A DNA stretch of 64,000 bases from the IMG/VR virus record IMGVR_UViG_3300020057_000496, positions 1 to 64,000 of that record. One strand, 5' to 3'. The stretch comes from a virus. Every line of letters starts with the position of its first letter. The stretch's first letter is position 1. The notes under the pieces were generated by a model that saw nothing but the letters and a program-made list of their open reading frames with translations, did no database searches and was not told where the DNA came from. Of this stretch, positions 17,321 to 44,792 are shown in pieces. Position numbers and translations under genes: made by a program.

Positions 17321-18049
17321 TAGGTCACCCCAGAGGACGCGCGATCGGGGCGCAGAACCCGAGCGTTTCGGGGACAAGCGGAAGAAGACCAAGCAGTTTC
17401 GCCAGGCAAGAAAAAAGCGCTCGCTGAATTAACTTCTTTCCTTTCTGTTGCGGAACTGTCAAGCTCCCGGCGTGAAGGAGGAATCAACCGACGGCGGGGT
17501 GCTCTATCACCTGGTTACTTTCTATATAGACGAAGTCGGCTGCTTCACGCCACCTGGCTGGCCTGGATACTACTATGTAACGGTAGGGGACGGCACGGTC
17601 GTAAGCCGACGTTGGGTTTTTTCGTCATTTCTTCACCTTCCCCCAGGAAGCTCCGCCCCACCAGGTTGGACAAATAAATGGGACGAAACGCAAAGAGAAG
17701 AATCTATATTCCAAAGGATGCGGTCATCCTCAAGCAGGCAAGTGGCTCGCTTGCTCCGGTTCGTTACTGGGGGTTGCTAGACGCATGGCTCGACGGTACA
17801 CGACTAGATAAGGTCGCATGTGATGCCAACTTAACTATGAGTGAACTGGAAGAGCTATTCAGAAGCATGGTGCTCGATATTGTCTACTCAAAAGAAAAAA
17901 GAAAAGGCGGGACTAAGGCGCTTCATTAAAGACATGCACTACCTTGGGCGCAAGTACCAAGGTTCCGTAAAGCCATCCAGGGCGATGGACTCGAAGAACA
18001 GAGTATCGCGCCAACAACAGAAGGTCATAGACAAGACGGAGAAGGAAGA

Positions 18050-18310
18050 ATGAGAAAAAGGTACGAAGTATATCTTGACAGCGTTAGGCTCGTAGTAAAC
18101 GCTGACTCCTGTCGCACCCAGGAGAACGGCGCCCTAGCTTTCTATGTGCACGACACGGACGAACCAGTTGCGGTGTTCCAGCACTGGCTCGGATTTAATT
18201 GCCTGACACTTACCCGTGGAGCGGAAGTGAGCGAGGCGCCTGTTCCGTTTGAAGTATGGACTGTGCCTAACGTTACTACGTCATGGGACGAGTCCGTACA
18301 GAAGCGTTAG
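18050..18310 (+). CDS. Hypothetical phage protein
   Basis: ORF with purine-rich RBS. Confidence 0.5.
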   Translation: MRKRYEVYLDSVRLVVNADSCRTQENGALAFYVHDTDEPVAVFQHWLGFNCLTLTRGAEVSEAPVPFEVWTVPNVTTSWDESVQKR

Positions 18311-18323
18311 GGGACACGGAGTA

Positions 18324-19082
18324 ATGGGCATTGAACAGAAGGTTCACTGTCTCGGGAAGACTGGGGAGTTAGTTGTCGTAAGTGACGTACATATTGGTGC
18401 GGACACATTCGACGAAGTCCACTTTCTTGAGACAGTAGACTATTGTAAGATCACCAAGTGTAAGATTTTCCTTAACGGCGACATTATCGAAAATGCGATC
18501 ATACAGGGGTCAAGTCCTGGCGAGAAGTTACTAGAGCAGAAGCTGATCCCTACGGATCAGATCAAGTACGCAACGGATCTATTCAAGCCGCTCGCGAAGA
18601 ATATCATTGGAATGACGCGCGGCAATCACGAGGCGCGGTCGCGTCGGGAGTCACTGGTTGATATCTCGGACCTGCTGGCCCACTCACTAGGCGTCCCTTA
18701 TCTCGGCCTTGGTGGATATATTCGTGTCCGGGCCGGTAGTCAGCCGTATACGCTTGCGTTACACCACGGCGGCGGCGGTGGCGTTAATACCTGGAAAGAA
18801 CTGGACAGGCTCATGGGCCTTTACCCGTCGGCGGACCTGGTTGGCGCGGGGCACGACCATAACTTCTGTACTCGGGAAATGACTTCATTGAACCTCAACG
18901 AGGACGGCACGGAATATATCCGGGTTGTGCACGAAGTGCGTACCGGTACGTATCTGAAGTATGCCGAGTACGCCCGTGGGCGGGCCTATGCCCCGAGTGC
19001 GGTAGGGTCCCCGATCATTACGTTCAACAGTAACTATAGCCATATTGATGTAGATGTCAAAAGCCTCCGGTGGTATGGCTAA
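18324..19082 (+). CDS. Calcineurin-like metallophosphoesterase
   Basis: Motifs SDVHIG, NGDIIE, GNHE, HHG and GHDH. Confidence 0.85.
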   Translation: MGIEQKVHCLGKTGELVVVSDVHIGADTFDEVHFLETVDYCKITKCKIFLNGDIIENAIIQGSSPGEKLLEQKLIPTDQIKYATDLFKPLAKNIIGMTRGNHEARSRRESLVDISDLLAHSLGVPYLGLGGYIRVRAGSQPYTLALHHGGGGGVNTWKELDRLMGLYPSADLVGAGHDHNFCTREMTSLNLNEDGTEYIRVVHEVRTGTYLKYAEYARGRAYAPSAVGSPIITFNSNYSHIDVDVKSLRWYG

Positions 19083-19413
19083 GGTGCCTATAGACGAAGA
19101 CGCACTTCGCGCGGTACGAGAAAAGCTCGGCTTGCGCGACTACAACTCCGAGGAGTTGCGCCTCCGGGCGCAAGAGCAGGTCATTCCCATTGGGATAAGC
19201 ATCCCAGAGGCATTAGTTCTCAAGGGTGCGATTCTACTCCAGCTTTCGTTATTTGCTTACCACCAGGAATTTATTCTGAAAGAATTAGGATTCGATAGGA
19301 CAACAGAAGAGATTCGTTACGGCTTGATCATGACGCTCTGCGATCTCCAGAAACGAATAACCGAGTCAATTTTTGCTAGGCAGCGAGAGATTTATGAAGA
19401 CAAGAACCATTGA
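19075..19413 (+). CDS. Hypothetical protein
   Basis: ORF overlapping the end of the phosphoesterase gene. Confidence 0.5.
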   Translation: MAKVPIDEDALRAVREKLGLRDYNSEELRLRAQEQVIPIGISIPEALVLKGAILLQLSLFAYHQEFILKELGFDRTTEEIRYGLIMTLCDLQKRITESIFARQREIYEDKNH

Positions 19414-19613
19414 GGCGTTACGTTGTGAGGGCTGTGGGTGTAGACAAGAGTCACACCCGGTGGATCAATTTCTCTCCGAGCGATACGGGGAACTTACACT
19501 AGGGGCCTGTACGGACTGCCAGCAATGTGAGTTTTACGACACGGACGGGGGGTACGACGATGAGGACAACTGGGATTCTTGAGTCGATTCCGGGACGGTC
19601 GCTTTACGGTGAC

Positions 19614-19789
19614 CGACAGCGAGCGCAGGCCCCGTCCCTTAGGGCGGGGTAAGCGAGCCATGAATGGCGGCAGGGCATGCCGTCACTGCGCGTGGAGGCA
19701 CAACGGTGCCGTTGAAGCGCGAACCCACTCGGGAGGTGCCGTATACTCCCCGAGGAATCCCCGTCCCCTTAGGGCGGGGAGGATGTCAA
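19614..19789 (+). mobile_element. Non-autonomous IS200/IS605 derivative (PATE/MITE): left end + omega-RNA/right end
   Basis: Near-identical to both ends of the 26201-27484 element with tnpB deleted after the ATG. Has two subterminal ccccgtccc..gggcgggg hairpins, ends in TCAA and is preceded by TGAC. Confidence 0.88.
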
Positions 19790-19859
19790 TAAGGGCGGGC
19801 CTATTTAGGCCAGGTAGGATGTCAATCATGCATCCACCGCTACACGAAAGAGGAGTTAG

Positions 19860-20117
19860 GTGGGGAGTACATTGAAATCTGTAACAACCTTACGGGTTAC
19901 GCCAGAGGTTGATTGTGACGCCAGTATTTGCTATAATTGTATTGCATTTAAGCTGTTGGACGGCCCCCAGGACGCCGAAGGCGAGCTTGGAGGCGAATGT
20001 AGGCTGAAGCCACCCGTAGTAGCAACGATAGACGAAGACGGCTACCCCATGACCGTCTGGCCATTAGTTATAGCCCAAGGCTGGTGTCTGTGTTTCGGCA
20101 AACGACCCACGACGTGA
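19860..20117 (+). CDS. Cys-rich phage protein (C..C...ECR..PP...WP.V....WC)
   Basis: Common small phage Zn-binding-like pattern. Confidence 0.55.
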   Translation: MGSTLKSVTTLRVTPEVDCDASICYNCIAFKLLDGPQDAEGELGGECRLKPPVVATIDEDGYPMTVWPLVIAQGWCLCFGKRPTT

Positions 20118-20126
20118 GGATGAGAT

Positions 20127-20489
20127 ATGTCTCTCAATACGGACGTGGGTGTTATGGGCAAAACTCGCAAAATAAAGGTTCGAAATAAAAGATACGAAAT
20201 CCGGCAGGTCGAGAATATTTCGGAGTCCGTCCCGGACTTGATTGCTCTGAATTACTCAAGGCCATTCAAGGATACCATAGGTCTCCTGCACCCCAAGAAA
20301 GACTTGATCCTCATTACTGAGAAGCTAACCGAAAGAGAAAAGGAAAGTACGATTCTACACGAGATTATTCACGCTTGCCTGCCTAACTTGACGGAAAAGA
20401 ATGTCAAGAATCTAGAGATTCGCATCTTCCCGACACTCTATAATAACGGACTGCGGTTCCTTAGTACCAGGAAGAAACGAGGACAGTAG
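20127..20489 (+). CDS. HExxH zincin-like (ImmA/IrrE-type) small protein
   Basis: 'STILHEIIHA'. Confidence 0.6.
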   Translation: MSLNTDVGVMGKTRKIKVRNKRYEIRQVENISESVPDLIALNYSRPFKDTIGLLHPKKDLILITEKLTEREKESTILHEIIHACLPNLTEKNVKNLEIRIFPTLYNNGLRFLSTRKKRGQ

Positions 20490-20660
20490 TGTCTGTGAAT
20501 ATTCACTCCAAGAATCCAACTATACGGGACAAGCGTGGCAAGGACACGTTTAATTCGTTTAGCATAAAGAACAACAAGGACCCGGCGGCCACTCCGGGCA
20601 AGATTGGCTCAAGTAAGGAGTACCGGCAGAACTACTACAAGGTATTTAAGAAGAAATGAC

Positions 20661-20837
20661 CGACAGCGAGCGCAGGCCCCGTCCCTTAGGGCGGGGTAAG
20701 TGAGCCATGAATGGCGGCAGGGCATGCCGTCACTGCGCGTAGAGGCACAACGGGTGCTGTTGAAGCGCGAACCTACTCGGGAGGTGCCGTATACTCCCCG
20801 AGGAATCCCCCGCCCTTTAGGGCGGGGAGGATGTCAA
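20661..20837 (+). mobile_element. Second PATE/MITE copy
   Basis: Near-identical to 19614-19789; TGAC upstream, TCAA end. Confidence 0.88.
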
Positions 20838-21272
20838 GCAGTTCGGTTGTGCCGCAACGATATAGTTGCCTTTTTTCGAACCAACCGAAGAGACTTCACG
20901 TGACGGGGCAGCCACGGGCGCCTGGTCGCGGGGTAGTTACGTGGAAATTGTTTGTTTTCCTGACTCATCGCGAGAAAGATGCGGCGATCTCGCGGGTAAT
21001 GGAAGCCAAGGAAGTTGTTCGGATGGACAAGCGCTATCAGTTCCTGAACGAACCATACAGTGATGTTCCTCACTATACTACAGACCAGACATTAGTTGGT
21101 TCGATGTTGAACTACATTCTATCACGTAGTTTCTGTGTTGACCTGGAGTTATCTACTTCTGGTGCACACGTCATGCGTGTCCGCGACGCCAATAACGGGG
21201 TCGCTTTACACTACCACGACCTGCAGGTCTTAATAGGAGCGGCCGTACTTTTTACAGCCGGTGAATTGGTTT

Positions 21273-22946
21273 ATGAGTGACTGTTCGAATGAATTTGAAA
21301 CAAGCCGACGCGGCCGACTTATTGGTTGCTTCTTCCTTGCATTGATCGTCGTCCTTTGGTGTGCCTTTGCGTTCGCCTCGACGGTTATCCTTCCGACAGA
21401 GGACGACATGATCGACGCAAGCGACGTTGTCGCCGTCGCGAAGGTGACAAGCATTACTTCTTACGACACCGACGTGGGCATACGGACACTAGTAGACTTC
21501 GCAGTCAGTGAGGTACTGAAGGGAACCCCGCCGCCGGGACTGGCTGTCCGTGAACTTGGCGGCAAGGTCGGAGAAAATGTCTTCTGGATTCCGGGTTCCC
21601 CGACTTACCGGGTTGGCGAACGTGTGATGGTATTCCTTGACCAGCGGGAGGACGGGACTTATCGAACCAAGCTCCTTGATGCCGGTCGTGTTCCGGTTCT
21701 TCCTGACGGAGTTGCGCGGAGTATGTCTGGGGACACGCTGGACACCTTCAAGTCGAGACTCACAAGTCGAGTCCTGCAGCGTAAGCAGGAATTACAGTCC
21801 CGTTCGGCGAGAGCGGCCAGCGCGACCTTTATGGTTCAGCCAGCGCCCCTTTCCGGTCCTGCCGAGAGCCAGGCAGAATTTCGTTTCATGACCGATCCTC
21901 CGTCGCTCTGGCTGAACAGGCCAGTCATGGTCTACGGCGACCCCGCTGGTGACGCCAAGATTGGACCAGTCGAGTCAAGACGTGCCGTGGCTGACGCGGC
22001 GGCTTCATGGTCAAGCGAGGCGAACGTAATCTTCGCCTACGCCGGGGACACGCCAGCAGTTGGGTACGCATGTGTCCCGGACAAGCTACTCGTGCAGTTC
22101 CGGGATGTCAAGAACGACATCGAGGACCCCAGTAACTGCTCGGGCGTTTTGGCTATAGGTGGTTTCTGTACTAGTGGCCTAGTGAGCGGCAAGTACCGCA
22201 TTGCATCAGGGGCCGTAGTTTTTAATAATGGCTGGGAGGGCTGTTCGTTCTGGAGCGCAGACAATATCGCCGAAGTCATGACTCACGAGTTCGGCCATGC
22301 GGTAGGACTTGCTCATTCCGCCGAGAGTGGCCAGACCTCGACGCCACACCTGGCAGACGCAACGATGTACTGGACGGCCCATTTCGACGGGCGACGTACC
22401 GGTCTGCGTGCGTACGACAAGGGGGCCATTCAGTCCCTTTATGGTTCAGTCAGGGCCTCGCCTGTACCGACGCCAGTCCCAACCAGGACGCCAGTACCAA
22501 CTGCGACAGTAGTCCCAACGGCGACTCCGACACCTATCCCTACTCCGGTCCCGACAGCCACGACGACGCCCGGCCCGACTGGCTCACCGGCCGGTCGATT
22601 CCTTGAGGTCCGGCAACTCCTGATTAAAGGTTCTGCCCGGAGGGGGCGTTCGGGGACACTCACGTTCAAGCTCGTCACAACCGAGAAACTCCCGAAGGAC
22701 CGGCCGACTGTTTTGTTCGCCAGTGAACTAGGCGGCAGTGTCCTGAGTAATCAGAATATTCAGAACGTCCAGACGTACGGGGAAACCCTGACCTTCCGTG
22801 CTGTCAATGTACCAAGTATTTTTTATCGAACCAGTATCAGAGTGGTCGTGATCGTCGGGCAGCGAGTCGCATTCGAGACGCTGACTTGCACCGCGCGTGA
22901 TCTTCTGCTCGGTACTACTATTTACTGCAGCCTAATAAAGGACTAG
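21273..22946 (+). CDS. Secreted/membrane-anchored matrixin-family (metzincin) metalloprotease with Pro-Thr linker
   Basis: N-terminal hydrophobic signal; HEFGHAVGLAH (HExxHxxGxxH); Met-turn 'ATMY'; (PT)n linker. Confidence 0.85.
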   Translation: MSDCSNEFETSRRGRLIGCFFLALIVVLWCAFAFASTVILPTEDDMIDASDVVAVAKVTSITSYDTDVGIRTLVDFAVSEVLKGTPPPGLAVRELGGKVGENVFWIPGSPTYRVGERVMVFLDQREDGTYRTKLLDAGRVPVLPDGVARSMSGDTLDTFKSRLTSRVLQRKQELQSRSARAASATFMVQPAPLSGPAESQAEFRFMTDPPSLWLNRPVMVYGDPAGDAKIGPVESRRAVADAAASWSSEANVIFAYAGDTPAVGYACVPDKLLVQFRDVKNDIEDPSNCSGVLAIGGFCTSGLVSGKYRIASGAVVFNNGWEGCSFWSADNIAEVMTHEFGHAVGLAHSAESGQTSTPHLADATMYWTAHFDGRRTGLRAYDKGAIQSLYGSVRASPVPTPVPTRTPVPTATVVPTATPTPIPTPVPTATTTPGPTGSPAGRFLEVRQLLIKGSARRGRSGTLTFKLVTTEKLPKDRPTVLFASELGGSVLSNQNIQNVQTYGETLTFRAVNVPSIFYRTSIRVVVIVGQRVAFETLTCTARDLLLGTTIYCSLIKD

Positions 22947-22949
22947 GGA

Positions 22950-23450
22950 ATGAACCAATTTGAGAAGCAAGTACGTGAGTTCCATGCCCACTTTGGCGCA
23001 ACTGTCGGGGACGCCCGCAACCCCGGACTTAATGAGTCGGCCCTTCGTAAGAACTTACTGCTGCAAGAGGTAGACGAGTTTATTCACGCAGTCGAATGGG
23101 GAGATTTTGACGGATCAATCCGAGAGCTACTTGACATTCTTTACGTGACGATCGGAGCACTTGTTGCATTCGGGGTCGAGGACATAGCGAGCTATTTTTC
23201 AGAATTGCACGAGGCTAACATGCGCAAAGAGGGTGGTTCGACTCGTGAAGACAGAAAGATCGTAAAGCCGGAAGGTTGGCAGCCGCCACACATCGGTCGG
23301 CTAATCGAGGCCCAACGCCTACGCGGCGAAGGTTCGGACCCGGCAAAGCCAGTGACAGGGAAGCCCGTGACTACGAAACCAGTGACGACGAAGCCTACGA
23401 AGCCAAGGAAAGAAGGGGCCAGTGTCTCAACTGAAAACAATCCTGGCTGA
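22950..23450 (+). CDS. MazG-like / PRA-PH nucleoside triphosphate pyrophosphohydrolase
   Basis: 'V.EFH..F', 'EVDEF', 'ELLDILYV..G' and 'H.ANM.K.......D.KIVKPEGW.PP'. Confidence 0.85.
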   Translation: MNQFEKQVREFHAHFGATVGDARNPGLNESALRKNLLLQEVDEFIHAVEWGDFDGSIRELLDILYVTIGALVAFGVEDIASYFSELHEANMRKEGGSTREDRKIVKPEGWQPPHIGRLIEAQRLRGEGSDPAKPVTGKPVTTKPVTTKPTKPRKEGASVSTENNPG

Positions 23451-23676
23451 GATTCGGAATCTCATCGACGCCCTTGAGTCCGCCGAAAGGGCTAAGTTCG
23501 AACAGGAGAACATAGCCGGGGAACGTAAGTTCGTTCTCGTTAAGCTGAAAAAAGGACTCATAGAGCTACGTGCACAGAGAGAGAAGGCACGCACTTCGCC
23601 AATTCGAGGGTCCTTCTGGCACGCGATTGACGACTGTACTAGTCTACTGGGGGAAATAGATGAAGTCATCGAGTAG
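23422..23676 (+). CDS. Hypothetical coiled-coil protein
   Basis: ORF in the operon. Confidence 0.45.
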   Translation: MSQLKTILAEIRNLIDALESAERAKFEQENIAGERKFVLVKLKKGLIELRAQREKARTSPIRGSFWHAIDDCTSLLGEIDEVIE

Positions 23677-23971
23677 TATTTTTGAATTCTTCGGGGCGCT
23701 AGTAGTATTACTAGTGGCCGTCGTAGCCTCGACGGTTGGTTTTAGCATACTCTTGTCGGTCGGCTATTTCGTGACTGTACTAGTCATGCCGTTATGGCAG
23801 GTACCACTGGCCAACTTCTTCCCGTTCTGTGTCGGGGTCGGCCTACAAGGAAAAATCCTGTTCACCGTTTGTTCGCCCCCATTCGGCAAAGATGACGGGG
23901 CACTAGCGCGGATCTTCGTGTTGCTCCTGGTCGGCCTCATCGCCGTAAGCATGCGATATTTACTGTTGTAG
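23660..23971 (+). CDS. Small multi-TM membrane protein
   Basis: Three hydrophobic segments. Confidence 0.5.
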   Translation: MKSSSSIFEFFGALVVLLVAVVASTVGFSILLSVGYFVTVLVMPLWQVPLANFFPFCVGVGLQGKILFTVCSPPFGKDDGALARIFVLLLVGLIAVSMRYLLL

Positions 23972-24019
23972 GGTCCAGGCCGTGGTGCTACAGTGCCCCC
24001 GTTGAGTCAATGTCCGATT

Positions 24020-24069
24020 CAATCAGGTTGCTCGGTCGAGCAATCAGGTTGCTCGGTCGAGCAATCAGG
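24020..24069. repeat. 21-bp tandem repeat (2.4 copies) containing the palindrome TTGCTCG-N2-CGAGCAA
   Basis: caatcaggttgctcggtcgag x2 + caatcagg, immediately upstream of the sulfatase RBS. Confidence 0.85.
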
Positions 24070-24080
24070 AGGAGGAATAC

Positions 24081-25328
24081 GTGAAAAAGATTCTCGTCGT
24101 AGCACTGCTTGGCCTACTGCTAACTCCCGATTTTTGCTGGGGAAAACCGAACATCCTGGTCGTAATCGCGGACGACATGGACTGGGTTACGTTCAACGCG
24201 ACGCCGGGCCTGGCCGAGATCGCCAGTCAGGGGGTGTTGTTCAATGCGGTCACGAGCACGCCGCTCTGCGGGCCTTCCAGGGCCTCGATCTTGACCGGCC
24301 GGGCCGCGCACAATCACCGTGTTCTGGGCAATGAGCGGAGCGCCCATAACGCGGCCTGGTACGCCAACGTACTTGGCAAGACTTTTGCTGACTACTGCCA
24401 GGGTGAAGGGTACCGGACGGTGATGGCCGGTAAGTACGCGAATCCATTCGACCAGCTCGACACGACTGGCTGGGATTCCTGGATTCCGCCCGAGGGGCGC
24501 GGCGAGCGCCAGGTTGGCCCATTCTGGCACGACGTGATGGTAGATCGGGTTGTCCTGGACATTGAGGCGCACCCGGACCAGCCTACGGTCGTCTGGTACA
24601 GTAGCACGATCCCCCACGGCCCCCTGATTCCGAGTAACGCCTACGCCGGGGTCATGGCAGGACTAACCCTACCAAAGGGGCCGAGCTTTAATGAGGCGGA
24701 CGTAAGTGACAAGGTGTCCTCCGTCTCGCTATTGCCGCTGTTTAGCGAGACTCAGCTAGTTGACCTAGAGAAGCGTTTCCGGCGGCGCGTGGAGATGTCG
24801 TTGTCGCTGGTGGACGGGATTCGGCGGCTGACAGAGGCACTGTCCGGCCGGCCGCTTTACGTTTTCTTCGTGTCCGACAACGGTTTTTTCGAGGGCCAGC
24901 ACCGAATCTTCCAGGGGAAGGGCTTGCCGTACGAAGAGGCGATCCGGGTGCCGATGTTCGTTGTTGGCGCAGGGGTCACGCCGGGTACCTCGCCGGCGTT
25001 AGTGTACGCCGGGGACATCGCGCCGACCGTCACCTCGCTCTGTGAGGCGAGTCCACGCGAAATGGACACGCATACATTAATCCCTCTTTTATCGAACCAC
25101 CTGCAGCCCTGGCGCAAGCGCGTTTTGGCCGAACACGGCTGGCGTGCGATCCGGACGGAGGTTCGGAAGCTGGTTCGATTTAGTGGAGGTGGTCGGGAGC
25201 TATTTCACCTTGGCGAGGACCCGTACGAGCTGTTGAGCAGGAGCAAGACTGTCCAGAGCCTAGAGGCCTACTTGGACAGGATGCTTGCTTGTTCGGGCGA
25301 AGATTGTTGGGAGATTGAGACAGAATAG
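24081..25328 (+). CDS. Formylglycine-dependent sulfatase with signal peptide
   Basis: 'PNILVVIADD', CGPSRASILTG (CxPSR), 'AGKY', 'SDNG', 'K..PYEE.IRVP' and 'DPYE'. Confidence 0.92.
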   Translation: MKKILVVALLGLLLTPDFCWGKPNILVVIADDMDWVTFNATPGLAEIASQGVLFNAVTSTPLCGPSRASILTGRAAHNHRVLGNERSAHNAAWYANVLGKTFADYCQGEGYRTVMAGKYANPFDQLDTTGWDSWIPPEGRGERQVGPFWHDVMVDRVVLDIEAHPDQPTVVWYSSTIPHGPLIPSNAYAGVMAGLTLPKGPSFNEADVSDKVSSVSLLPLFSETQLVDLEKRFRRRVEMSLSLVDGIRRLTEALSGRPLYVFFVSDNGFFEGQHRIFQGKGLPYEEAIRVPMFVVGAGVTPGTSPALVYAGDIAPTVTSLCEASPREMDTHTLIPLLSNHLQPWRKRVLAEHGWRAIRTEVRKLVRFSGGGRELFHLGEDPYELLSRSKTVQSLEAYLDRMLACSGEDCWEIETE

Positions 25329-25330
25329 GC

Positions 25331-25359
25331 TTGACATGCCGTCCCTTAATGAGTATTTT
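25331..25359 (+). promoter_or_regulatory. Sigma70-like promoter
   Basis: TTGACA-N17-TATTTT; an alternative TAAAAT lies at 25363. Confidence 0.55.
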
Positions 25360-25369
25360 TCTAAAATCT

Positions 25370-25464
25370 GGCGGTAGGGCGTGCCGTTAATGCGCGAACC
25401 TACTCGGGAGGTGCCGTATACTTCCCGAGGAATCCCCGCCCCTTCAGGGCGGGGAGGATGTCAA
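25370..25464 (+). ncRNA. Stand-alone shortened TnpB omega-RNA scaffold/right end
   Basis: Matches the 3' part of the PATEs with an internal deletion between gcgcg repeats; ends GGATGTCAA; no intact left end. Confidence 0.6.
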
Positions 25465-25527
25465 GAAGTGCTCGATTGGTCGAGCAAGAGATTGTTCGAT
25501 TGGTCGAACAATCCGAAAGGGAGAGAC

Positions 25528-26058
25528 ATGGCACCGAAGAATAACGTGATGAAGCTGGCGACCTCCGATACGGGCGACACCGACGCGCCGACGGACGCAA
25601 CCGGAGACGCAACGGACGAGACGACCTCGACCATGGCGTCACCGACCATGGACGTACACACCACGGACGTACACACCACGGTCATGGTGGAACAGTTCAT
25701 CAGGCGGCGCGAAGAGGCCATTGCGGCGTCGGCATCGATCGATGCCGAGATGGACACAGCAATCTCCGATCTTGAGGCCCAACTGGAGGTTCTGTACGGG
25801 GCGCGCGGTTCGCGCCCGAAGCAGGGTACTCGCCGGGCCGCAGCCCGCCGTCAGGTTCCGATCGGGTCCGACCGGCTGAACTGGGACGAGAAGCTGTCCG
25901 CGCAGGAAGCCCACTTCACCATCGACGACTTGATGACCGACAAGGCGACCGCCGAACGCGGTCGCCAGGCATGCCACCAGGCTGTCAACCGCTGGGCAGA
26001 GAAGGGGCTAGTGAAGAAGCTGGGCGACGGGCGTATCCGCAAGAACGCCACCCGGTAA
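25528..26058 (+). CDS. Putative DNA-binding protein (acidic N-terminus, coiled coil, C-terminal winged-helix-like region)
   Basis: RBS GAAAGGGAG; C-terminal 'FTIDDL...QAVNRWAEKGLVKKLGDG'. Confidence 0.5.
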   Translation: MAPKNNVMKLATSDTGDTDAPTDATGDATDETTSTMASPTMDVHTTDVHTTVMVEQFIRRREEAIAASASIDAEMDTAISDLEAQLEVLYGARGSRPKQGTRRAAARRQVPIGSDRLNWDEKLSAQEAHFTIDDLMTDKATAERGRQACHQAVNRWAEKGLVKKLGDGRIRKNATR

Positions 26059-26088
26059 GCCGTCGGCCGACAAACTCGTCCTCGACGG

Positions 26089-26130
26089 GGAATGGGGAGT
26101 CTGATATAAGCAGGCTCCCCATTCCTGTTT
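26089..26130 (+). terminator. Intrinsic terminator
   Basis: ggaatggggagtctg...caggctccccattcc followed by tgttt. Confidence 0.65.
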
Positions 26131-26200
26131 GTGGGACGTGAGGTGTTATGGACGCACATGAAGCCGCCGGGAGACTCCGGCAGGAATCCGAAACTCTTAC

Positions 26201-27484
26201 CAACAGCGAGCGCAGGCCCCGTCCTTTAGGGTGGGGTAAGCGAGCCATAAATGCGTCAACGCCTACAGCCCACGACGGACGAAGCCGAAGCACTTCTGGA
26301 GCATGCTGCTCAGGCACGCTTCGTCTGGAATCTCGCCCTTGAGCAGGCGAACCAGTACCGCCACGATCGTGGTCCGACGCCAGGATGGGCTGCGCAATGC
26401 CGCCAACTCGTGCAACTTCGGGCGGAGCACAACTGGATTGGTACGGGATCGTCAAGCATTCAGCAGCAGGCGCTCAAAGACCTGGCGCAGGCGTTTATTA
26501 ACTGGTGGAAACGTCCGGGCCACTTTGGGCGTCCGACTTGGCGAAAGCGTGGGCAGCACGAAGGCTTCCGCGTCGTGAACGTCACCGAGAGGTCAGTCGA
26601 GATTCTGCACCGGAGGGCGGCCACCGTCTTCGTTCCCAAGGTTGGTCGAGTACGCTTTCGAATCACACGACCGGTGCCGCTCGGCATCAAGTCGTATCGC
26701 ATCCGACGGGACGCGGCGGGTCGCTGGTGGCTGGCGTTCGCGGTCAAGCCGCAGGCGCTCACGAGAGGCGAAGGCGAGGTCGGTATCGACCGTGGCGTCG
26801 CACAGTCGCTAGCATTCTCCGACGGGACGTTTAGTCAGACACCGTCGCTGTCGTTGCCCGAACGGCGCCACCTGTTGCGCCTACAGCGCAAACTCGCGCG
26901 GCGGGTGAAGGGCAGTGTCCGTCGTGGCCGGGTCAAGCTCGCCATCGCTCGGCTGCGGGCGCGCGAGTCGGACCGCGCAAAAGACTGGGTCGAGAAGCAG
27001 ACGACGCGGATCGTCCGCGCGTCGCGTCTCGTGGTGATCGAGAAGCTTCAGATTCGGAACATGGTGCGTAGCGTCAAGGGCTCCATCGAGGAGCCCGGCA
27101 AGAACGTCCGCCAGAAGGCGGGCCTGAGCCGTGTGATCCTGGCGCAGCGCTGGGGCTTGTTTGCCAGGCGCCTACGAGAGAAGTCGGAACTAGCCGGTGT
27201 TGAGCTGATCGAAGTCAACCCGGCGTACACGTCGCAGCAGTGCTATGCGTGCGGCCACACGGCACCGGAAAATCGCGAGAGCCAAGCGAAATTCAGATGC
27301 CAATCGTGTGGCCGCTCAGCGAACGCAGACACCAACGCGGCGAAGAATATCCTTGCGGCAGGGCGTGCCGTCAATGCGCGTGGAGGCACAACGGTGCCGC
27401 TGAAGCGCGAACCTACTCGGGATGTACGCCGTGCCGCGTAACTTCCGAGGAATCCCCGTCCCTTCAGGGCGGGGAGGATGTCAA
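26201..27484 (+). mobile_element. IS200/IS605-family (IS1341-type, tnpB-only) element
   Basis: TTAC upstream of the left end, subterminal hairpins, TCAA right end, tnpB inside. Confidence 0.9.
26251..27441 (+). CDS. tnpB: RNA-guided endonuclease TnpB
   Basis: 'ARFVWN'; RuvC-I GIDRG; RuvC-II VIEKL; zinc finger CYAC/CQSC; RuvC-III NADTNAAKNI. Confidence 0.95.
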   Translation: MRQRLQPTTDEAEALLEHAAQARFVWNLALEQANQYRHDRGPTPGWAAQCRQLVQLRAEHNWIGTGSSSIQQQALKDLAQAFINWWKRPGHFGRPTWRKRGQHEGFRVVNVTERSVEILHRRAATVFVPKVGRVRFRITRPVPLGIKSYRIRRDAAGRWWLAFAVKPQALTRGEGEVGIDRGVAQSLAFSDGTFSQTPSLSLPERRHLLRLQRKLARRVKGSVRRGRVKLAIARLRARESDRAKDWVEKQTTRIVRASRLVVIEKLQIRNMVRSVKGSIEEPGKNVRQKAGLSRVILAQRWGLFARRLREKSELAGVELIEVNPAYTSQQCYACGHTAPENRESQAKFRCQSCGRSANADTNAAKNILAAGRAVNARGGTTVPLKREPTRDVRRAA

Positions 27485-27669
27485 CAAGAACGCCAGGTAC
27501 CTAGAGTCACTGGCCGCAAGTGCGACCGGGAGAGACGGCCGAGTTCCGATTGCCAGTAGGCTGTTCGATCAAGCGGTAGAGAAGGCCGTTACCGCGTATC
27601 TCCTGGCGATTGGGAACTCACGGGATCTCACACTCTTCATTCAACGCGAGCTGTGTTCGAGGTGCGTAG

Positions 27670-28281
27670 ATGTCTCTCAAGATCAATCAGTCAGAAAACC
27701 AAGAGTTACTCACCGTACAGATACAGAAGCCTAGCGCGAAATACTTTGATGAGATGTTGCGCATGTCCAGCGCGGCCGACTTGCTGCGGTCGGGCGTCTT
27801 CCCGAACGCCAAGGAAGTCACCGAGAGCTTCGGGGCGTACGACGCTGTCCGGAGGCACCTCTGGCGCGACTTCAAGCCGGACGACGACGAGGTGCTCTGT
27901 ATTTGCGTCGCGGACGGCCGGACGCCACGGACAGCACTGACGTTCGGGCTCCGTTCGGCCTGGACCTGTATCTCGGTTGATCCAAATCTCAACACCGGGC
28001 GCTTCCCGTTTTGGGTAACGAACTTCCGACGGCTCTTGATGTTCGCAAAGAAGATCGAGCAGTGCCAGTTCTCGGCACGGAAGGTGGTTGTCGTCATGGT
28101 CCACCCCCACGTCAAGATCCCACTCGCACTGGAAGCGATCACCGGATTCGAGCAGCGGGCGGTCGTGTCGATGCCTTGCTGTGTAAAACAGGAGATCCCC
28201 GGCCATCCACCCGACCTGGAGTACCACGATAGAGGGGTCTGGTCGCCACAGCGGACGGTGAAGGTGTGGAAGCAAATCTGA
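27670..28281 (+). CDS. Hypothetical protein, possible SAM-dependent methyltransferase fold
   Basis: 'CVADGRTPRT..TF......SVDP' and 'MPCC'. Confidence 0.45.
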   Translation: MSLKINQSENQELLTVQIQKPSAKYFDEMLRMSSAADLLRSGVFPNAKEVTESFGAYDAVRRHLWRDFKPDDDEVLCICVADGRTPRTALTFGLRSAWTCISVDPNLNTGRFPFWVTNFRRLLMFAKKIEQCQFSARKVVVVMVHPHVKIPLALEAITGFEQRAVVSMPCCVKQEIPGHPPDLEYHDRGVWSPQRTVKVWKQI

Positions 28282-28613
28282 AATCTTATCTTGACGTTGT
28301 CAAGCTGGTCGTCGAGTTACTTGACGGACGGGTAGTCGAGCCGGAAGATGATCAATCCAGCGACGAGGACCAGGTCATTGAGACAACCTCGATAGGACAT
28401 TGCATGCCACTAGTTAGGTAGAAGTCTAGGGACAAGTTGAATTACTGACTCGGTGTCGTAAAATCGCTAGCCTTTCTGTTCCTTTCGATCTAATCTCTCC
28501 GACAATCAAGTCGGGCACACGGAGTGGCCTTCCTCCCGGAAGGCGGTAAGAGGACTAGGACCCGCCCTTCGTGCTGCTTTCATGACCGACCTAACTCGGA
28601 AGGAGAGTTGAGA

Positions 28614-30440
28614 TTGAAGCCTAGCGCATGTATCGAAGTACTCCGGGCCACGGTCAAGATGAGTTCTCCGGTTTACCTGTGGGGACAGCCAGGATGTATC
28701 GCTGCCCAGACTAAGCTAAGTTATGTATCGCGTGGCCCTGACGGCAAGACACGTTCCACTAAGGGTGGTTCAATTGAACGACTCTACCAGGTGTTCCATG
28801 GTCTGACCGGACCAGGAAAGGGGCGCTATCAGGTAGCCCCAGTTGATTCGCAATTTTGGGTTTCGTCCGTAGACGACGAAGGGCGAATCTTCAAGAACCG
28901 CGTACTGGACGTAGTCCAGAGTGGCCAGAGGAAGTGTCTCCGACTCCGGACTAAGTCCGGCCTTGAAATCGAGGCGACCGACGACCACGAGTTTATGTCC
29001 GACGGGGAGTTTGCGGCACTTCGAGACTTACGGCCCGGTTCGGTCGTGGACGTACATACTAACAAGATCATCAATACGTCAACACGAAGGCCCAAGCGCA
29101 GTCGCGCCAGCCTCTCCGTACCTCACCATCCGTATGCCAGTACGCATGTGATTGAAAAGAAGTACACCTATAAGGCTCTTCCGTTGGCCAGAGCAATAGT
29201 GGAAGCTGACATGAATTCGCTCTCTATTGCCGAGTATCAGGCAAGGCTCAATAGTGGCGACCTTAGAGGGCTTCAGTTCCTTAAGAAGTCTGACGACGTT
29301 CACCACCGCGACGAGGATTGCACGAATGATGTGATCGAAAATCTTGAGGTTATTAGTCACACAGAGCACGCGCGACGCCACGGACTAAGGTATCAATCGT
29401 TACGTTACGTCACTACACGGGACGAAGTTGACTGGATTCAGCCGGTAGGTGTCAAGGAAACTTACGATCTCAAGATGGCTGGGCCATACCATAATTTTGT
29501 TGCAGCAAGTTTCGTCGTACATAACTGCGGCAAGAGCGATATCGTCAAGCGGGTAGCCAAGGAGCTAGAACTGCCGGTCATTGACATCCGCGCAGTCCTG
29601 CTCGACCCCGTTGATCTTCGGGGCATCCCGTACGTTCGTGACGGGGTCGCTCACTGGGCGTCGCCTTCGTTCCTCCCCCGCGACGGCGAGGGCATCATGT
29701 TCCTGGACGAGATCGCGAATGCGCCTCCGATGGTGCAGTCAGCACTCCTTCAACTTATTCTCGACGGCAAGGTCGGCGAGTATACAAAGCCGCCGGGCTG
29801 GCGTTTTGTCGCCGCGTCTAATCGCGTCGGCGACCGCGCGGGTAGCCATAAGATCATTTCGTCACTGGCGAATCGCTTTGCGTGCCACATCAACATGGAG
29901 GTTGACCACGAAGACTGGAATACCTGGGCAATAGAGGCCGGCATCGCCCCGGACATTCGTTCGTTCCTTAACTTCAAGCCGGCACTGCTGTCACAGTTTA
30001 ATCCGAACTCCGACGAGCCCGCATTTTCAACTCCAAGATCCTGGAAATTTGCCAGTGATCTTATCGCTAACATCCCGGAGGGGATGCACCTGCAAGTTCT
30101 TTCCGGTACGGTCGGGGCCGGATGTGCAGCCGAGTACGTTGCGTTCCGTGACGTGTATATGCGGATTCCGACGCTTGAGCAGATAGTCAAGGACCCCCAG
30201 AAGGTCAGCGTAAATAACGACCCGGCAACAAACTTTGCACTGGTCGGCGCACTTACCGACGCATGCGGGCGGCGTCCTAAGAATAAGGAAGTCCTGAACG
30301 CAGTCGTGGAGTTCATTTGCCGACTCCCGGCAGCGTTTGCGACCGTGTTCTTCCGTGACGTGTCACTCGTTGCTCCTATCACGATGAACCTACCCGGTAG
30401 TCGCGAGTGGGTACGCAAGCATCGTGGGACGATCGCGTAA
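28614..30440 (+). CDS. MoxR-like AAA+ ATPase containing an intein
   Basis: Walker A GQPG|CGKS split by the intein; 'DLRGIP'; Walker B 'FLDEI'; 'AASNR'; 'LANRF'; 'TPRSW'. TTG start inferred from RBS GGAG. Confidence 0.9.
   Translation: MKPSACIEVLRATVKMSSPVYLWGQPGCIAAQTKLSYVSRGPDGKTRSTKGGSIERLYQVFHGLTGPGKGRYQVAPVDSQFWVSSVDDEGRIFKNRVLDVVQSGQRKCLRLRTKSGLEIEATDDHEFMSDGEFAALRDLRPGSVVDVHTNKIINTSTRRPKRSRASLSVPHHPYASTHVIEKKYTYKALPLARAIVEADMNSLSIAEYQARLNSGDLRGLQFLKKSDDVHHRDEDCTNDVIENLEVISHTEHARRHGLRYQSLRYVTTRDEVDWIQPVGVKETYDLKMAGPYHNFVAASFVVHNCGKSDIVKRVAKELELPVIDIRAVLLDPVDLRGIPYVRDGVAHWASPSFLPRDGEGIMFLDEIANAPPMVQSALLQLILDGKVGEYTKPPGWRFVAASNRVGDRAGSHKIISSLANRFACHINMEVDHEDWNTWAIEAGIAPDIRSFLNFKPALLSQFNPNSDEPAFSTPRSWKFASDLIANIPEGMHLQVLSGTVGAGCAAEYVAFRDVYMRIPTLEQIVKDPQKVSVNNDPATNFALVGALTDACGRRPKNKEVLNAVVEFICRLPAAFATVFFRDVSLVAPITMNLPGSREWVRKHRGTIA
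28695..29525 (+). mobile_element. Intein with HNH homing endonuclease (277 aa)
   Basis: Begins C(IAAQT); block B 'ATDDHEF'; HNH 'VHHRDEDCTNDVIENL'; ends 'VVHN' followed by Cys. Confidence 0.92.
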
Positions 30441-42219: not shown

Positions 42220-42456
42220 GTGGGCGCAATTTTAGTCGCTTCGTGTCTCTGTCAGAATGCGTACCAGGACGGCCTTTATGGTCGCGGGAAGCGGCTGTTC
42301 AATCTCAAGTTCGACAAGGCCAAGGGGTCACTGTGTACCGTCTGCGGCAAGTCCGGGCCAGGCGTGGCCGTCCGTGAGGTTGCCACGAAAATCAAGCAGG
42401 CGAAGAAGGAAGAGCCGAAGGACAAGTCCGGTAAGAAGGGCAAGAAGGCAAAGTAA
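42220..42456 (+). CDS. Small basic zinc-finger-like protein
   Basis: 'C.C....QD.LYG.G.R..N......CTVCG' with a Lys-rich tail. Confidence 0.6.
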   Translation: MGAILVASCLCQNAYQDGLYGRGKRLFNLKFDKAKGSLCTVCGKSGPGVAVREVATKIKQAKKEEPKDKSGKKGKKAK

Positions 42457-42531
42457 GCCAGTTCCTTCGTCGTCAATGCTCTATACTTTTTCCTTTTACT
42501 TCAACGACGAGTCCAGGCGGGCTATTCGTTC

Positions 42532-42835
42532 AAGTCGGAACTAGCCGGTGTTGAGCTGATCGAAGTCAACCCGGCGTACACGTCGCAACGCTGCTACTCC
42601 TGTGGCCACACGTGCGCATCGAATCGCGAGAACCAAGCGGAATTTCGTTGCGTGTCGTGCGGCCACGAAGCGAACGCGGACATCAACGCGGCGAAGAATA
42701 TCCTTGCGGCAGGACATGCCGTCAATGCGCGTGGAGGCACACGGGTGCCGTTGAAGCGCGAACCTACTCGGGAGGTACGCCGTGCCGCGTAACTTCCGAG
42801 GAATCCTCGTCCCTTCAGGGCGGGGAGGATGTCAA
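42532..42835 (+). pseudogene. tnpB: 3' fragment of a tnpB element with intact omega-RNA/right end
   Basis: First ~55 nt are identical to 27181-27236; similarity continues to GGATGTCAA. Confidence 0.85.
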
Positions 42836-43745: not shown

Positions 43746-44792
43746 GTGGTACTTACGTTTCGCTACCGTGTCAAGAAGCCCGGTGTGCTCCCCGCGAAAG
43801 CGCGCGCCGTCAACTTCGTCTGGAACTACTGCGGCGACGTGCAGAATCAGGCACGACGCTGGGCGCGACGCTGGCCCAGCGGCTTTGACCTCTGCAAGCT
43901 CGCCGCTGGATCGACGCGACTGCTCGAACTGCACTCCGACACCGTGCAGGACATCGCCAGGCACTTCGCTCGCTCGCGCGACACGAAGCGCCGTCGGCCA
44001 CGATGGCGCGCCTCGCAGGGGTCTAAGCGTGCGCTCGGCTGGGTTCCCTTCCAGTCCGCGCGTGCCATCCATCTCGACCAAAGCGGCGTGACCTACCTCG
44101 GGACTCGCTACCGACTCTGGATGCATCGCCCAGTCGAGGGCCGCGTGCTCTCTGGGTCGTTCAGTGAAGATGCGCGCGGTCGGTGGTACCTGAACCTGCA
44201 GTGCGAAGTCGAGCCCGCTGCCGCGCGCGCTGGCGAAAGTGTCGGCATCGACCTCGGGCTGAAGACGTTCGCCACGATGTCCAACGGCGAGACGATCGAG
44301 AACCCCCGACACTACCGTCGCGAGGAAGCCGCACTCGCCATCGCGCAGCGGGCTGGTCACAAGCAGCGAGCGAAGGCGATCAACGCCAAGATTTCCAATC
44401 GAAGGAAGCACGACCTGCATGTCGCCTCGCGGCGACTGGTCGATCGCTTCGCCACTATCGTTGTCGGCAACGTGAACGCCGCCAGTCTCGCCAGGACTCC
44501 GCTCGCAAAGAGCGTGCTCGACGCTGGCTGGTCGATGTTCCGTGGGATGCTCCGCTACAAAGCCAACAGGCACGGCGTGACCTACGTAGAGGCTGACGAG
44601 CGATTTTCGACGCAGACCTGTTCCGAGTGCGGAAGCCTCGGCGGCCCGAGAGGGCTGGAGGGTCTCGCAGTAAGGGAATGGGTGTGCGAGCACTGCGCTG
44701 CGGTCCACGACCGCGACGTCAATGCCGCTCGAAATATCCTGTTCTCGGGGCAGAACGTTGTCCTCCACTTGACGGAAAGCCCCAGCCTTTAG
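43746..44792 (+). CDS. tnpB: TnpB (IS605-group) with non-canonical RuvC-II
   Basis: 'AVNFVWN', GIDLG, 'IVVGNV', 'DERFSTQTCSEC', 'CEHC' and 'HDRDVNAARNI'; right-end hairpin ccccagcctttaggccgggg ending about 44809. Confidence 0.92.
   Translation: MVLTFRYRVKKPGVLPAKARAVNFVWNYCGDVQNQARRWARRWPSGFDLCKLAAGSTRLLELHSDTVQDIARHFARSRDTKRRRPRWRASQGSKRALGWVPFQSARAIHLDQSGVTYLGTRYRLWMHRPVEGRVLSGSFSEDARGRWYLNLQCEVEPAAARAGESVGIDLGLKTFATMSNGETIENPRHYRREEAALAIAQRAGHKQRAKAINAKISNRRKHDLHVASRRLVDRFATIVVGNVNAASLARTPLAKSVLDAGWSMFRGMLRYKANRHGVTYVEADERFSTQTCSECGSLGGPRGLEGLAVREWVCEHCAAVHDRDVNAARNILFSGQNVVLHLTESPSL

Follow-up and report, generated by a model that had tools for sequence, protein, structure and literature searches.

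The 95-nt sequence at 25370-25464 is, on balance, best read as a decaying and immobile PATE-like mini-derivative of a TnpB element, which is passively transcribed as a 5' leader. As such it would be a transposon relic of a rather common sort, and its domestication as a guide-RNA gene is not proven. Domestication had been considered in the original prediction, but the scaffold is present in one haplotype and absent from another, a conserved helix is gone and no terminator follows it. A TldR-like guide would be expected to be fixed in the lineage and to have a target besides its own flank, but this guide has no second target in the 167-kb record. The original prediction had also proposed a comparison of related loci. 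Contigs from other microbial-mat samples show such a scaffold-less allele.

The window, by which we mean the whole 64,000-nt stretch that was analysed, covers the first 64 kb of an IMG/VR phage record of 166,852 bp (54% G+C). Its DNA occurs in microbial-mat metagenomes, and no RNA run was listed among the sequencing runs that contain it. All features described here lie on the plus strand unless indicated otherwise. A sulfatase-like gene (24081-25328) is the upstream neighbour of a sigma70-type promoter-like site, TTGACA-N17-TATTTT, at 25331-25359 (hexamers at 25331-25336 and 25354-25359). This site serves gene 25528 (25528-26058), an ORFan of 176 aa with AAGGGAG before its start. The -10 hexamer is part of an AT-rich 29-nt segment at 25341-25369 that is specific to this haplotype, and TATTTT ends 10 nt 5' of the 95-nt scaffold copy. 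The sequence statements of the original prediction were all confirmed at their coordinates, including this promoter-like site just before the scaffold 5' end. The locus had no match in the phage GenBank collection, and IMG/VR, from which near-identical records may be excluded, gave no relatives for either gene 25528 or the sulfatase-like gene.

The scaffold starts with GGCGGTAGGGCGTGCCG (GGCGGTAGGG) at 25370 and ends with ...GGATGTCAA at 25464. It is one of five scaffold copies in the window, and none of 100 shuffled sequences gave as many matches. With the other four scaffolds, at 27354-27484, 42705-42835, 19666-19789 and 20713-20837, copy 25370 shares 81-91% identity, and it is homologous to the RNA at the tnpB 3' end that reaches the transposon right end. 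The first of these scaffolds (full length, from about 27354) forms the 3' end of an intact TnpB-only element of the IS200/IS605 family at 26201-27484, with the TnpB gene at 26251-27441 (Pfam matches) and TTAC before it at 26197-26200. The second belongs to a TnpB 3' remnant with stop codon, full scaffold and right end (42448-42835). The other two are found in gene-less mini-elements, each preceded by TGAC. Mini-element 1 (19614-19789) consists of the left end, the TnpB start codon and a complete scaffold, and mini-element 2 (20661-20837) is 95.6% identical to it. We observed that an ORF at 20711-21280 starts at the TnpB start codon of mini-element 2 and reads through the scaffold into the downstream gene; the gene probably begins only after a terminator-like hairpin at 20854-20869.

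Stem 1 of copy 25370 (25370-25388) has the loop GGGCG, a candidate pseudoknot partner of the 3' tail. Comparison of the copies placed a GCGCG deletion junction at 25392-25396, stem-loop 3 at 25403-25429, the right-end hairpin at 25434-25454 and the TCAA-terminated tail AGGATGTCAA at 25455-25464. Exactly 29 nt (TGGAG...GAAGCGCG) are gone between two GCGCG repeats relative to the other four copies, in agreement with the loss of about 29 nt noticed at first. The deleted segment is stem-loop SL2, a conserved module, and copy 25370 does not have the full helix set of its clade. In the phage both strands of the SL2 closing helix read GCGCG, which makes them direct repeats and complements at once. 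We propose that SL2 was lost by slippage between these repeats at the hairpin base. Since copy 25370 shares the short stem-loop 3 and the TGGCGG junction with the mini-elements, it was placed in their lineage.

The two ends of copy 25370 are preserved to a different extent. On the right we found the subterminal hairpin (25434-25454) and TCAA at 25464. On the left there is no intact end, as had been stated: the 3' arm of the hairpin and the 16 nt 5' of it are absent, and there is no left end with hairpin, guide and adjacent target tetranucleotide. The sole trace is the 10-mer CCGTCCCTTA at 25339-25348, which corresponds to the 5' arm of the left-end hairpin. It lies at nearly the expected distance, and 1-5 of 2000 shuffled sequences scored as high. 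The copy had been judged not mobilisable, and this is supported: the left-end hairpin, guide and cleavage site required by the IS200/IS605 TnpA are lost, so that mobilisation should fail. The deletion junction was not found in other flanks elsewhere in IMG/VR by pattern scan. Pattern scans of IMG/VR with the scaffold core and with the mini-lineage stem-loop 3 gave no match either, and one metagenome scan returned only a chance 20-mer in a coding region (L049).

Some observations speak against a relic. The retained helices show no decay: at the three stem positions where copy 25370 departs from the other copies, the bases pair as well as before or better (C-G to U-G in stem 1, A.C to A-U in stem-loop 3 and G.U to G-C in the end hairpin). 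Moreover, an apparently intact TnpB gene lies 790 bp downstream, and the guide of copy 25370 matches a co-occurring scaffold-less haplotype perfectly.

The intact element is a mobile unit. A copy 99.3% identical over 26196-27484 was present in two IMG/VR contigs (L013 and L014) with unrelated flanks, which fixes the ends of the unit. The homology stops exactly after TCAA on the right, where a hairpin is followed by a 10-nt tail with TCAA at its end, and on the left it includes CT(G/T)AC. TGAC or TTAC precedes all six left ends in the phage and also those in L013 and L014, from which we infer that TGAC/TTAC is the likely target site and TAM. The phage record yielded no gene for a TnpA (Y1) transposase, which means that the element must be mobilised by a transposase from another source. 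The TnpB protein aligned over its full length with ISDra2 TnpB (E = 4e-26). Judged by its acidic residues in GIDRG, VIEKL and DTNAA and by two CxxC motifs, it is apparently catalytically intact. The bins of the mini-elements had a depth of 59-371 in the mat samples X2 and X4, compared to 20-32 for neighbouring phage bins, and many different flanks followed the mini-element right ends in the mat samples. This means that the element family is active in the community.

The flank to the right of the intact element (27485-27984) was strain-variable. In X4 the right end (to 27485) was joined via CC to 27985, so that 499 nt with the beginning of the ORF at 27670-28281 are missing, and in X8 27484 was joined to 27942. 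The guide of the intact element thus varies between haplotypes. We also observed micro forms of about 45-50 nt further along the phage record (G000 C1), at 89217-89267 (minus strand) and 135162-135205 (plus strand). In each, one hairpin stands between the left-end leader and the right-end tail, which reads AGGATGTCA or TAAATGTCAA, and they resemble products of recombination between the left and right hairpins. The phage also has another two TnpB homologues, both distant (29-33% identity), at 43746-44792 and, on the minus strand of G000 C1, at 74222-74839. The latter is followed by a right-end hairpin and a tail that resemble those of the 26201-27484 element family.

The phage scaffold belongs to a widespread clade. 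The 18-mer GGGCGGGGAGGATGTCAA was found in more than 120 genome contigs (L050-L169) of Proteobacteria, Actinobacteria, Cyanobacteria, Firmicutes and haloarchaea. In many of these contigs a recognisable tnpB 3' end precedes it, and a subset of them has the same architecture as the phage scaffold. The 18-mer usually comes after GGAATCC and a hairpin. Some of its copies, in Enterobacteriaceae, Yersinia, Sodalis and haloarchaea, are seemingly solitary units of hairpin plus tail. This 3' motif is thus common to TnpB elements across Bacteria and Archaea, and Rfam covers it with narrow archaeal families only. The Rfam family HgcC (RF00062) matched copy 25370 over the whole model with 27 bits and a full copy with 24.3 bits, both below the gathering score of 50, and sot0042 (RF02656) also stayed below threshold (17 vs 88 bits). 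Since HgcC begins at stem 1, the mini-elements and copy 25370 start at approximately the 5' end of the RNA as modelled.

Covariation was examined in 13 related scaffolds from other bacteria, of which only the stem 1 and SL2 helices were used. Four of the six pairs of stem 1 had changes on both sides. The SL2 closing helix (5 pairs) was 100% paired, with changes on both sides in 3 pairs and up to 4 pair types per position. Its strands are CGCG/CGCG in the phage, and other sequences have CUUG/CAAG, CCUG/CAGG or CCCG/CGGG. In slid controls, pairing dropped to 42-49%. AUGUC in the 3' tail complements the stem 1 loop GGACA (in the phage GGGCG/GGGCA), and a pseudoknot between this loop and the tail, like that of ISDra2 (PMC10097598), may be formed. 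It is put forward as a proposal only, since both sides are nearly invariant.

To compare haplotypes, contigs of four other mat runs were aligned over 18000-29000. A 5.3-kb contig of X4 (depth 22) and contigs of X2 and X8 join 25340 to 25465 through another 29 nt, TGTAATGCAGGACTATTACACCTGCATAC. This sister allele reads TTGACA, N17, TATTAC, ten bases and GAAGTGCTCGATTGG..., so it directly continues with GAAGTGCTCG (GAAGTGC) where our haplotype has the scaffold, and it carries the palindromes and the gene. It is dominant in X4, and no other allele was seen in X8. X2 contains the two alleles side by side (joint depth 8.4, plus a 260-nt contig identical to 25162-25421 of the window). The scaffold had been described as lying behind its own promoter, but in the sister haplotype the hexamers and their spacing exist without it, which means that the promoter is native to gene 25528. 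The sister haplotype also shows that the scaffold is dispensable for the phage.

The right junction between the alleles is the exact transposon end, after TCAA. We also considered a clean empty site, and this failed on the left, where a simple insertion can be derived neither from TGAC (25332-25335) nor from the CATAC in the sister allele. The 29-nt segments of the two alleles are equal in length but share only 11 positions, among them GA(C/G)TATT in register, which was recognised by eye. From its sequence, 25341-25369 could be a promoter region orthologous to that of the sister allele but diverged, or else a left end that has degenerated. Likewise, the polymorphism could be a gain or a loss of the scaffold, with either allele ancestral. 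The 29 nt of the sister allele are absent elsewhere in this genome and gave no match in IMG/VR (pattern scan). They form an imperfect hairpin, GTAATGCAGG ... CCTGCATAC, with the -10-like TATTAC (which contains TTAC) in the loop.

To the left of the scaffold the haplotypes differ strongly. The 125 nt at 25192-25316, at the end of the sulfatase-like gene, contain 13 base differences and two indels (about 12%), compared to about 1% divergence over the preceding 4.4 kb and the following 760 nt. Recombination or co-conversion may have produced this spike, and it is probable that the haplotype received the scaffold together with its left flank, by recombination with a more distant lineage.

We then considered the leader of gene 25528. 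No intrinsic terminator was found between 25465 and 25528, so transcription would run into the gene and the scaffold would be part of its mRNA leader. Two tandem palindromes span 25469-25511 in both haplotypes. The first, TGCTCGATTGGTCGAGCA at 25469-25486, is the one into which the guide had been reported to run, and this was confirmed; the second, at 25492-25511, is an additional finding. They have the same 12-nt core, TCGATTGGTCGA, their outer positions compensate (GC...GC vs GT...AC), and both are hairpins in the minimum-energy fold of the leader. They are candidates for operator-like sites or for twin leader hairpins with UUGG loops. A pattern search with the palindromes matched only an unrelated coding region (L170). 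A 2-nt indel upstream of the ATG of gene 25528 differs between the haplotypes and shifts the upstream frame, which means that the leader is non-coding and that 25528 is the start. The product of the gene had no Pfam or PHROG match and only one homologue (94% identical), and its structure was predicted with low confidence (pLDDT 63, pTM 0.26).

For a decaying relic we propose the following. In this haplotype the 25528 mRNA leader, transcribed from the promoter, would begin with ~95 nt of scaffold, and the scaffold would not be a separate small-RNA gene. The element would be immobile and selectively near-neutral. As a side effect of the insertion, the palindromes, which in the scaffold-less allele would sit at about +5 to +45 from the transcription start, would have moved to about +100 to +145, and a stable 5' structure would have been added.

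Alternatively, the scaffold could be a co-opted cis-acting leader that is kept since it changes the expression of gene 25528. This could be achieved by separating the promoter from the operator-like palindromes, by protecting the mRNA 5' end or by TnpB binding to the leader. The scaffold is indeed positioned between the promoter and the palindromes, and the predicted fold of the leader is very stable (-73 kcal/mol, z = -5.25, minimum-energy prediction). The palindromes, which lie between the promoter and the ribosome-binding site, and the ribosome-binding region are conserved in both haplotypes, with no differences listed for the palindromes. At the C-terminus of the 25528 protein, an Atlas search gave weak winged-helix leads (scores of 0.79-0.82, to be taken as leads only), which makes autoregulation via the palindromes conceivable. 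However, there is no evidence of selection: the scaffold is a polymorphism, and the commoner haplotype does without it. We consider co-option rather unlikely. Of the original prediction of a co-opted 5' UTR of gene 25528, only the position in the leader is shown, and a function is possible.

A further explanation concerns the guide. The guide-equivalent 20 nt, GAAGTGCTCGATTGGTCGAG at 25465-25484, are simply the DNA that flanks the right end, since similarity between the copies ends exactly at TCAA. A second match in the 167-kb genome was found for none of the five guides (12-nt seed, at most 1 mismatch), as expected of guides derived from transposon flanks. The only genome match of GAAGTGCTCGATTGGTCGAG is itself. 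It is, however, present 20/20 in the scaffold-less haplotype, so a trans-acting role is conceivable. Copy 25370 could thus be a homing cassette that consists of an omega-RNA only: the promoter would produce the shortened omega-RNA, TnpB would be loaded with it and cut scaffold-less sister genomes, and recombinational repair would copy the cassette together with its left flank. Both haplotypes were found in one sample, TnpB looks catalytically intact, and copy 25370 retains stem 1, the candidate pseudoknot loop, stem-loop 3, the end hairpin and the 3' tail. The divergent 125 nt to the left of the insertion look like co-conversion from a diverged donor, and there are precedents for omega-RNAs acting in trans (PMC10691335) and for TnpB homing (PMC10055086).

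Several observations do not fit such a cassette. The conserved SL2 is missing, and there is no terminator to define the 3' end. The target in the sister haplotype is directly preceded by ATAC (CATAC), not by the TGAC or TTAC seen at the left ends in the phage, L013 and L014. Positions 5-22 of the guide lie inside the stable hairpin predicted for the first palindrome (7 bp), and guide function would therefore be hindered. To the right of the insertion, on the side of the presumed cut, the haplotypes show no elevated divergence, and the scaffold-less allele is still dominant in X4 and the sole allele seen in X8. We consider homing unlikely. A bolder form of it would be an allele drive between phages by an omega-RNA alone. 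Here a guide cassette with a captured strong native promoter would use the TnpB of the neighbouring IS to cut co-infecting sisters at the empty site, and it would spread by recombination alone while co-converting the left flank. We regard this as very unlikely; if true, it would be an RNA-guided counterpart of the marker exclusion by homing endonucleases in phages.

The last explanation questions the promoter. The site at 25331-25359 has 10 of 12 consensus matches and a 17-nt spacing, within the 16-18 nt expected between the hexamers. By itself this match is statistically weak: a consensus scan of 12 kb found no enrichment of promoter-like sites (5 found vs 5.2 expected), and the excess of TTGACA-N16-18-TANNNT in the 167-kb genome was modest (6 sites vs 2.5 expected). 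Nevertheless, the site is above chance because of its intergenic position, 3 nt past the upstream stop codon and about 170 nt before the next start, and because the sister haplotype keeps an identical -35 and a -10-like hexamer with the same spacing in an otherwise unlike intervening sequence, so that a fortuitous match in a region read only from the transcription of upstream genes is highly improbable.

The locus is a natural experiment, in which haplotypes of an uncultivated 167-kb mat phage co-occur, the guide carried by one matches the other, and an apparently active TnpB is encoded close by. It allows tests of TnpB homing between competing phage genomes and of the need for SL2 in TnpB function in a widespread clade. 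The effect of an insertion between promoter and operator-like sites on phage gene control could be tested here as well.

The ends of the phage elements are like those of IS608 from Helicobacter pylori (PMC3201880), with subterminal hairpins and a TCAA that ends a 10-nt tail 3' of the right hairpin. TGAC/TTAC in the phage is positioned ~16-20 nt 5' of the left hairpin, and IS608 uses TTAC (PMC3201880). Unlike IS608, the phage elements carry TnpB only or nothing, and TnpA was not found in the record. The scaffold resembles that of ISDra2 (PMC10097598) in its length of about 116-130 nt, in the UUYA-type loop of its end hairpin and in the possible pairing between tail and stem 1. Its sequence is unrelated to the ISDra2 scaffold, and in the phage clade an additional conserved stem-loop, SL2, follows stem 1 and precedes the next stem. 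The ISDra2 parts that can be removed while activity is kept are the 5' region and the distal stem 3b (PMC10097598). HgcC and sot0042 are archaeal RNAs that overlap tnpB 3' ends, and their 3' domain is nearly the same (...CCCCGCCC-UUYA-GGGCGGGGAGGAKGUCA).

An immobilised guide beside a regulated promoter would resemble the TldR guide RNAs of nuclease-dead TnpB repressors (PMC13622181). Unlike in the TldR systems, the phage TnpB is part of an intact mobile element with catalytic residues, and the only target of the guide is its own flank. Gene-less PATE-like IS200/IS605 elements that carry omega-RNAs were described previously (PMC10055086; PMC10691335), and TnpB homing was established by Meers et al. 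(PMC10055086). Stand-alone omega-RNAs can act in trans, according to the passage of PMC10691335 that refers to Altae-Tran et al. 2021. Like these elements and RNAs, copy 25370 is protein-less and keeps the right end and the scaffold, with a compatible TnpB elsewhere in the genome and the DNA adjoining its right end as guide. The described examples are mobile and keep both ends, whereas copy 25370 lacks the left end and one conserved helix. It is also fed by the promoter of a gene and not by one of its own. Copy 25370 is thus a broken, immobilised member of a described kind in an unusual position.
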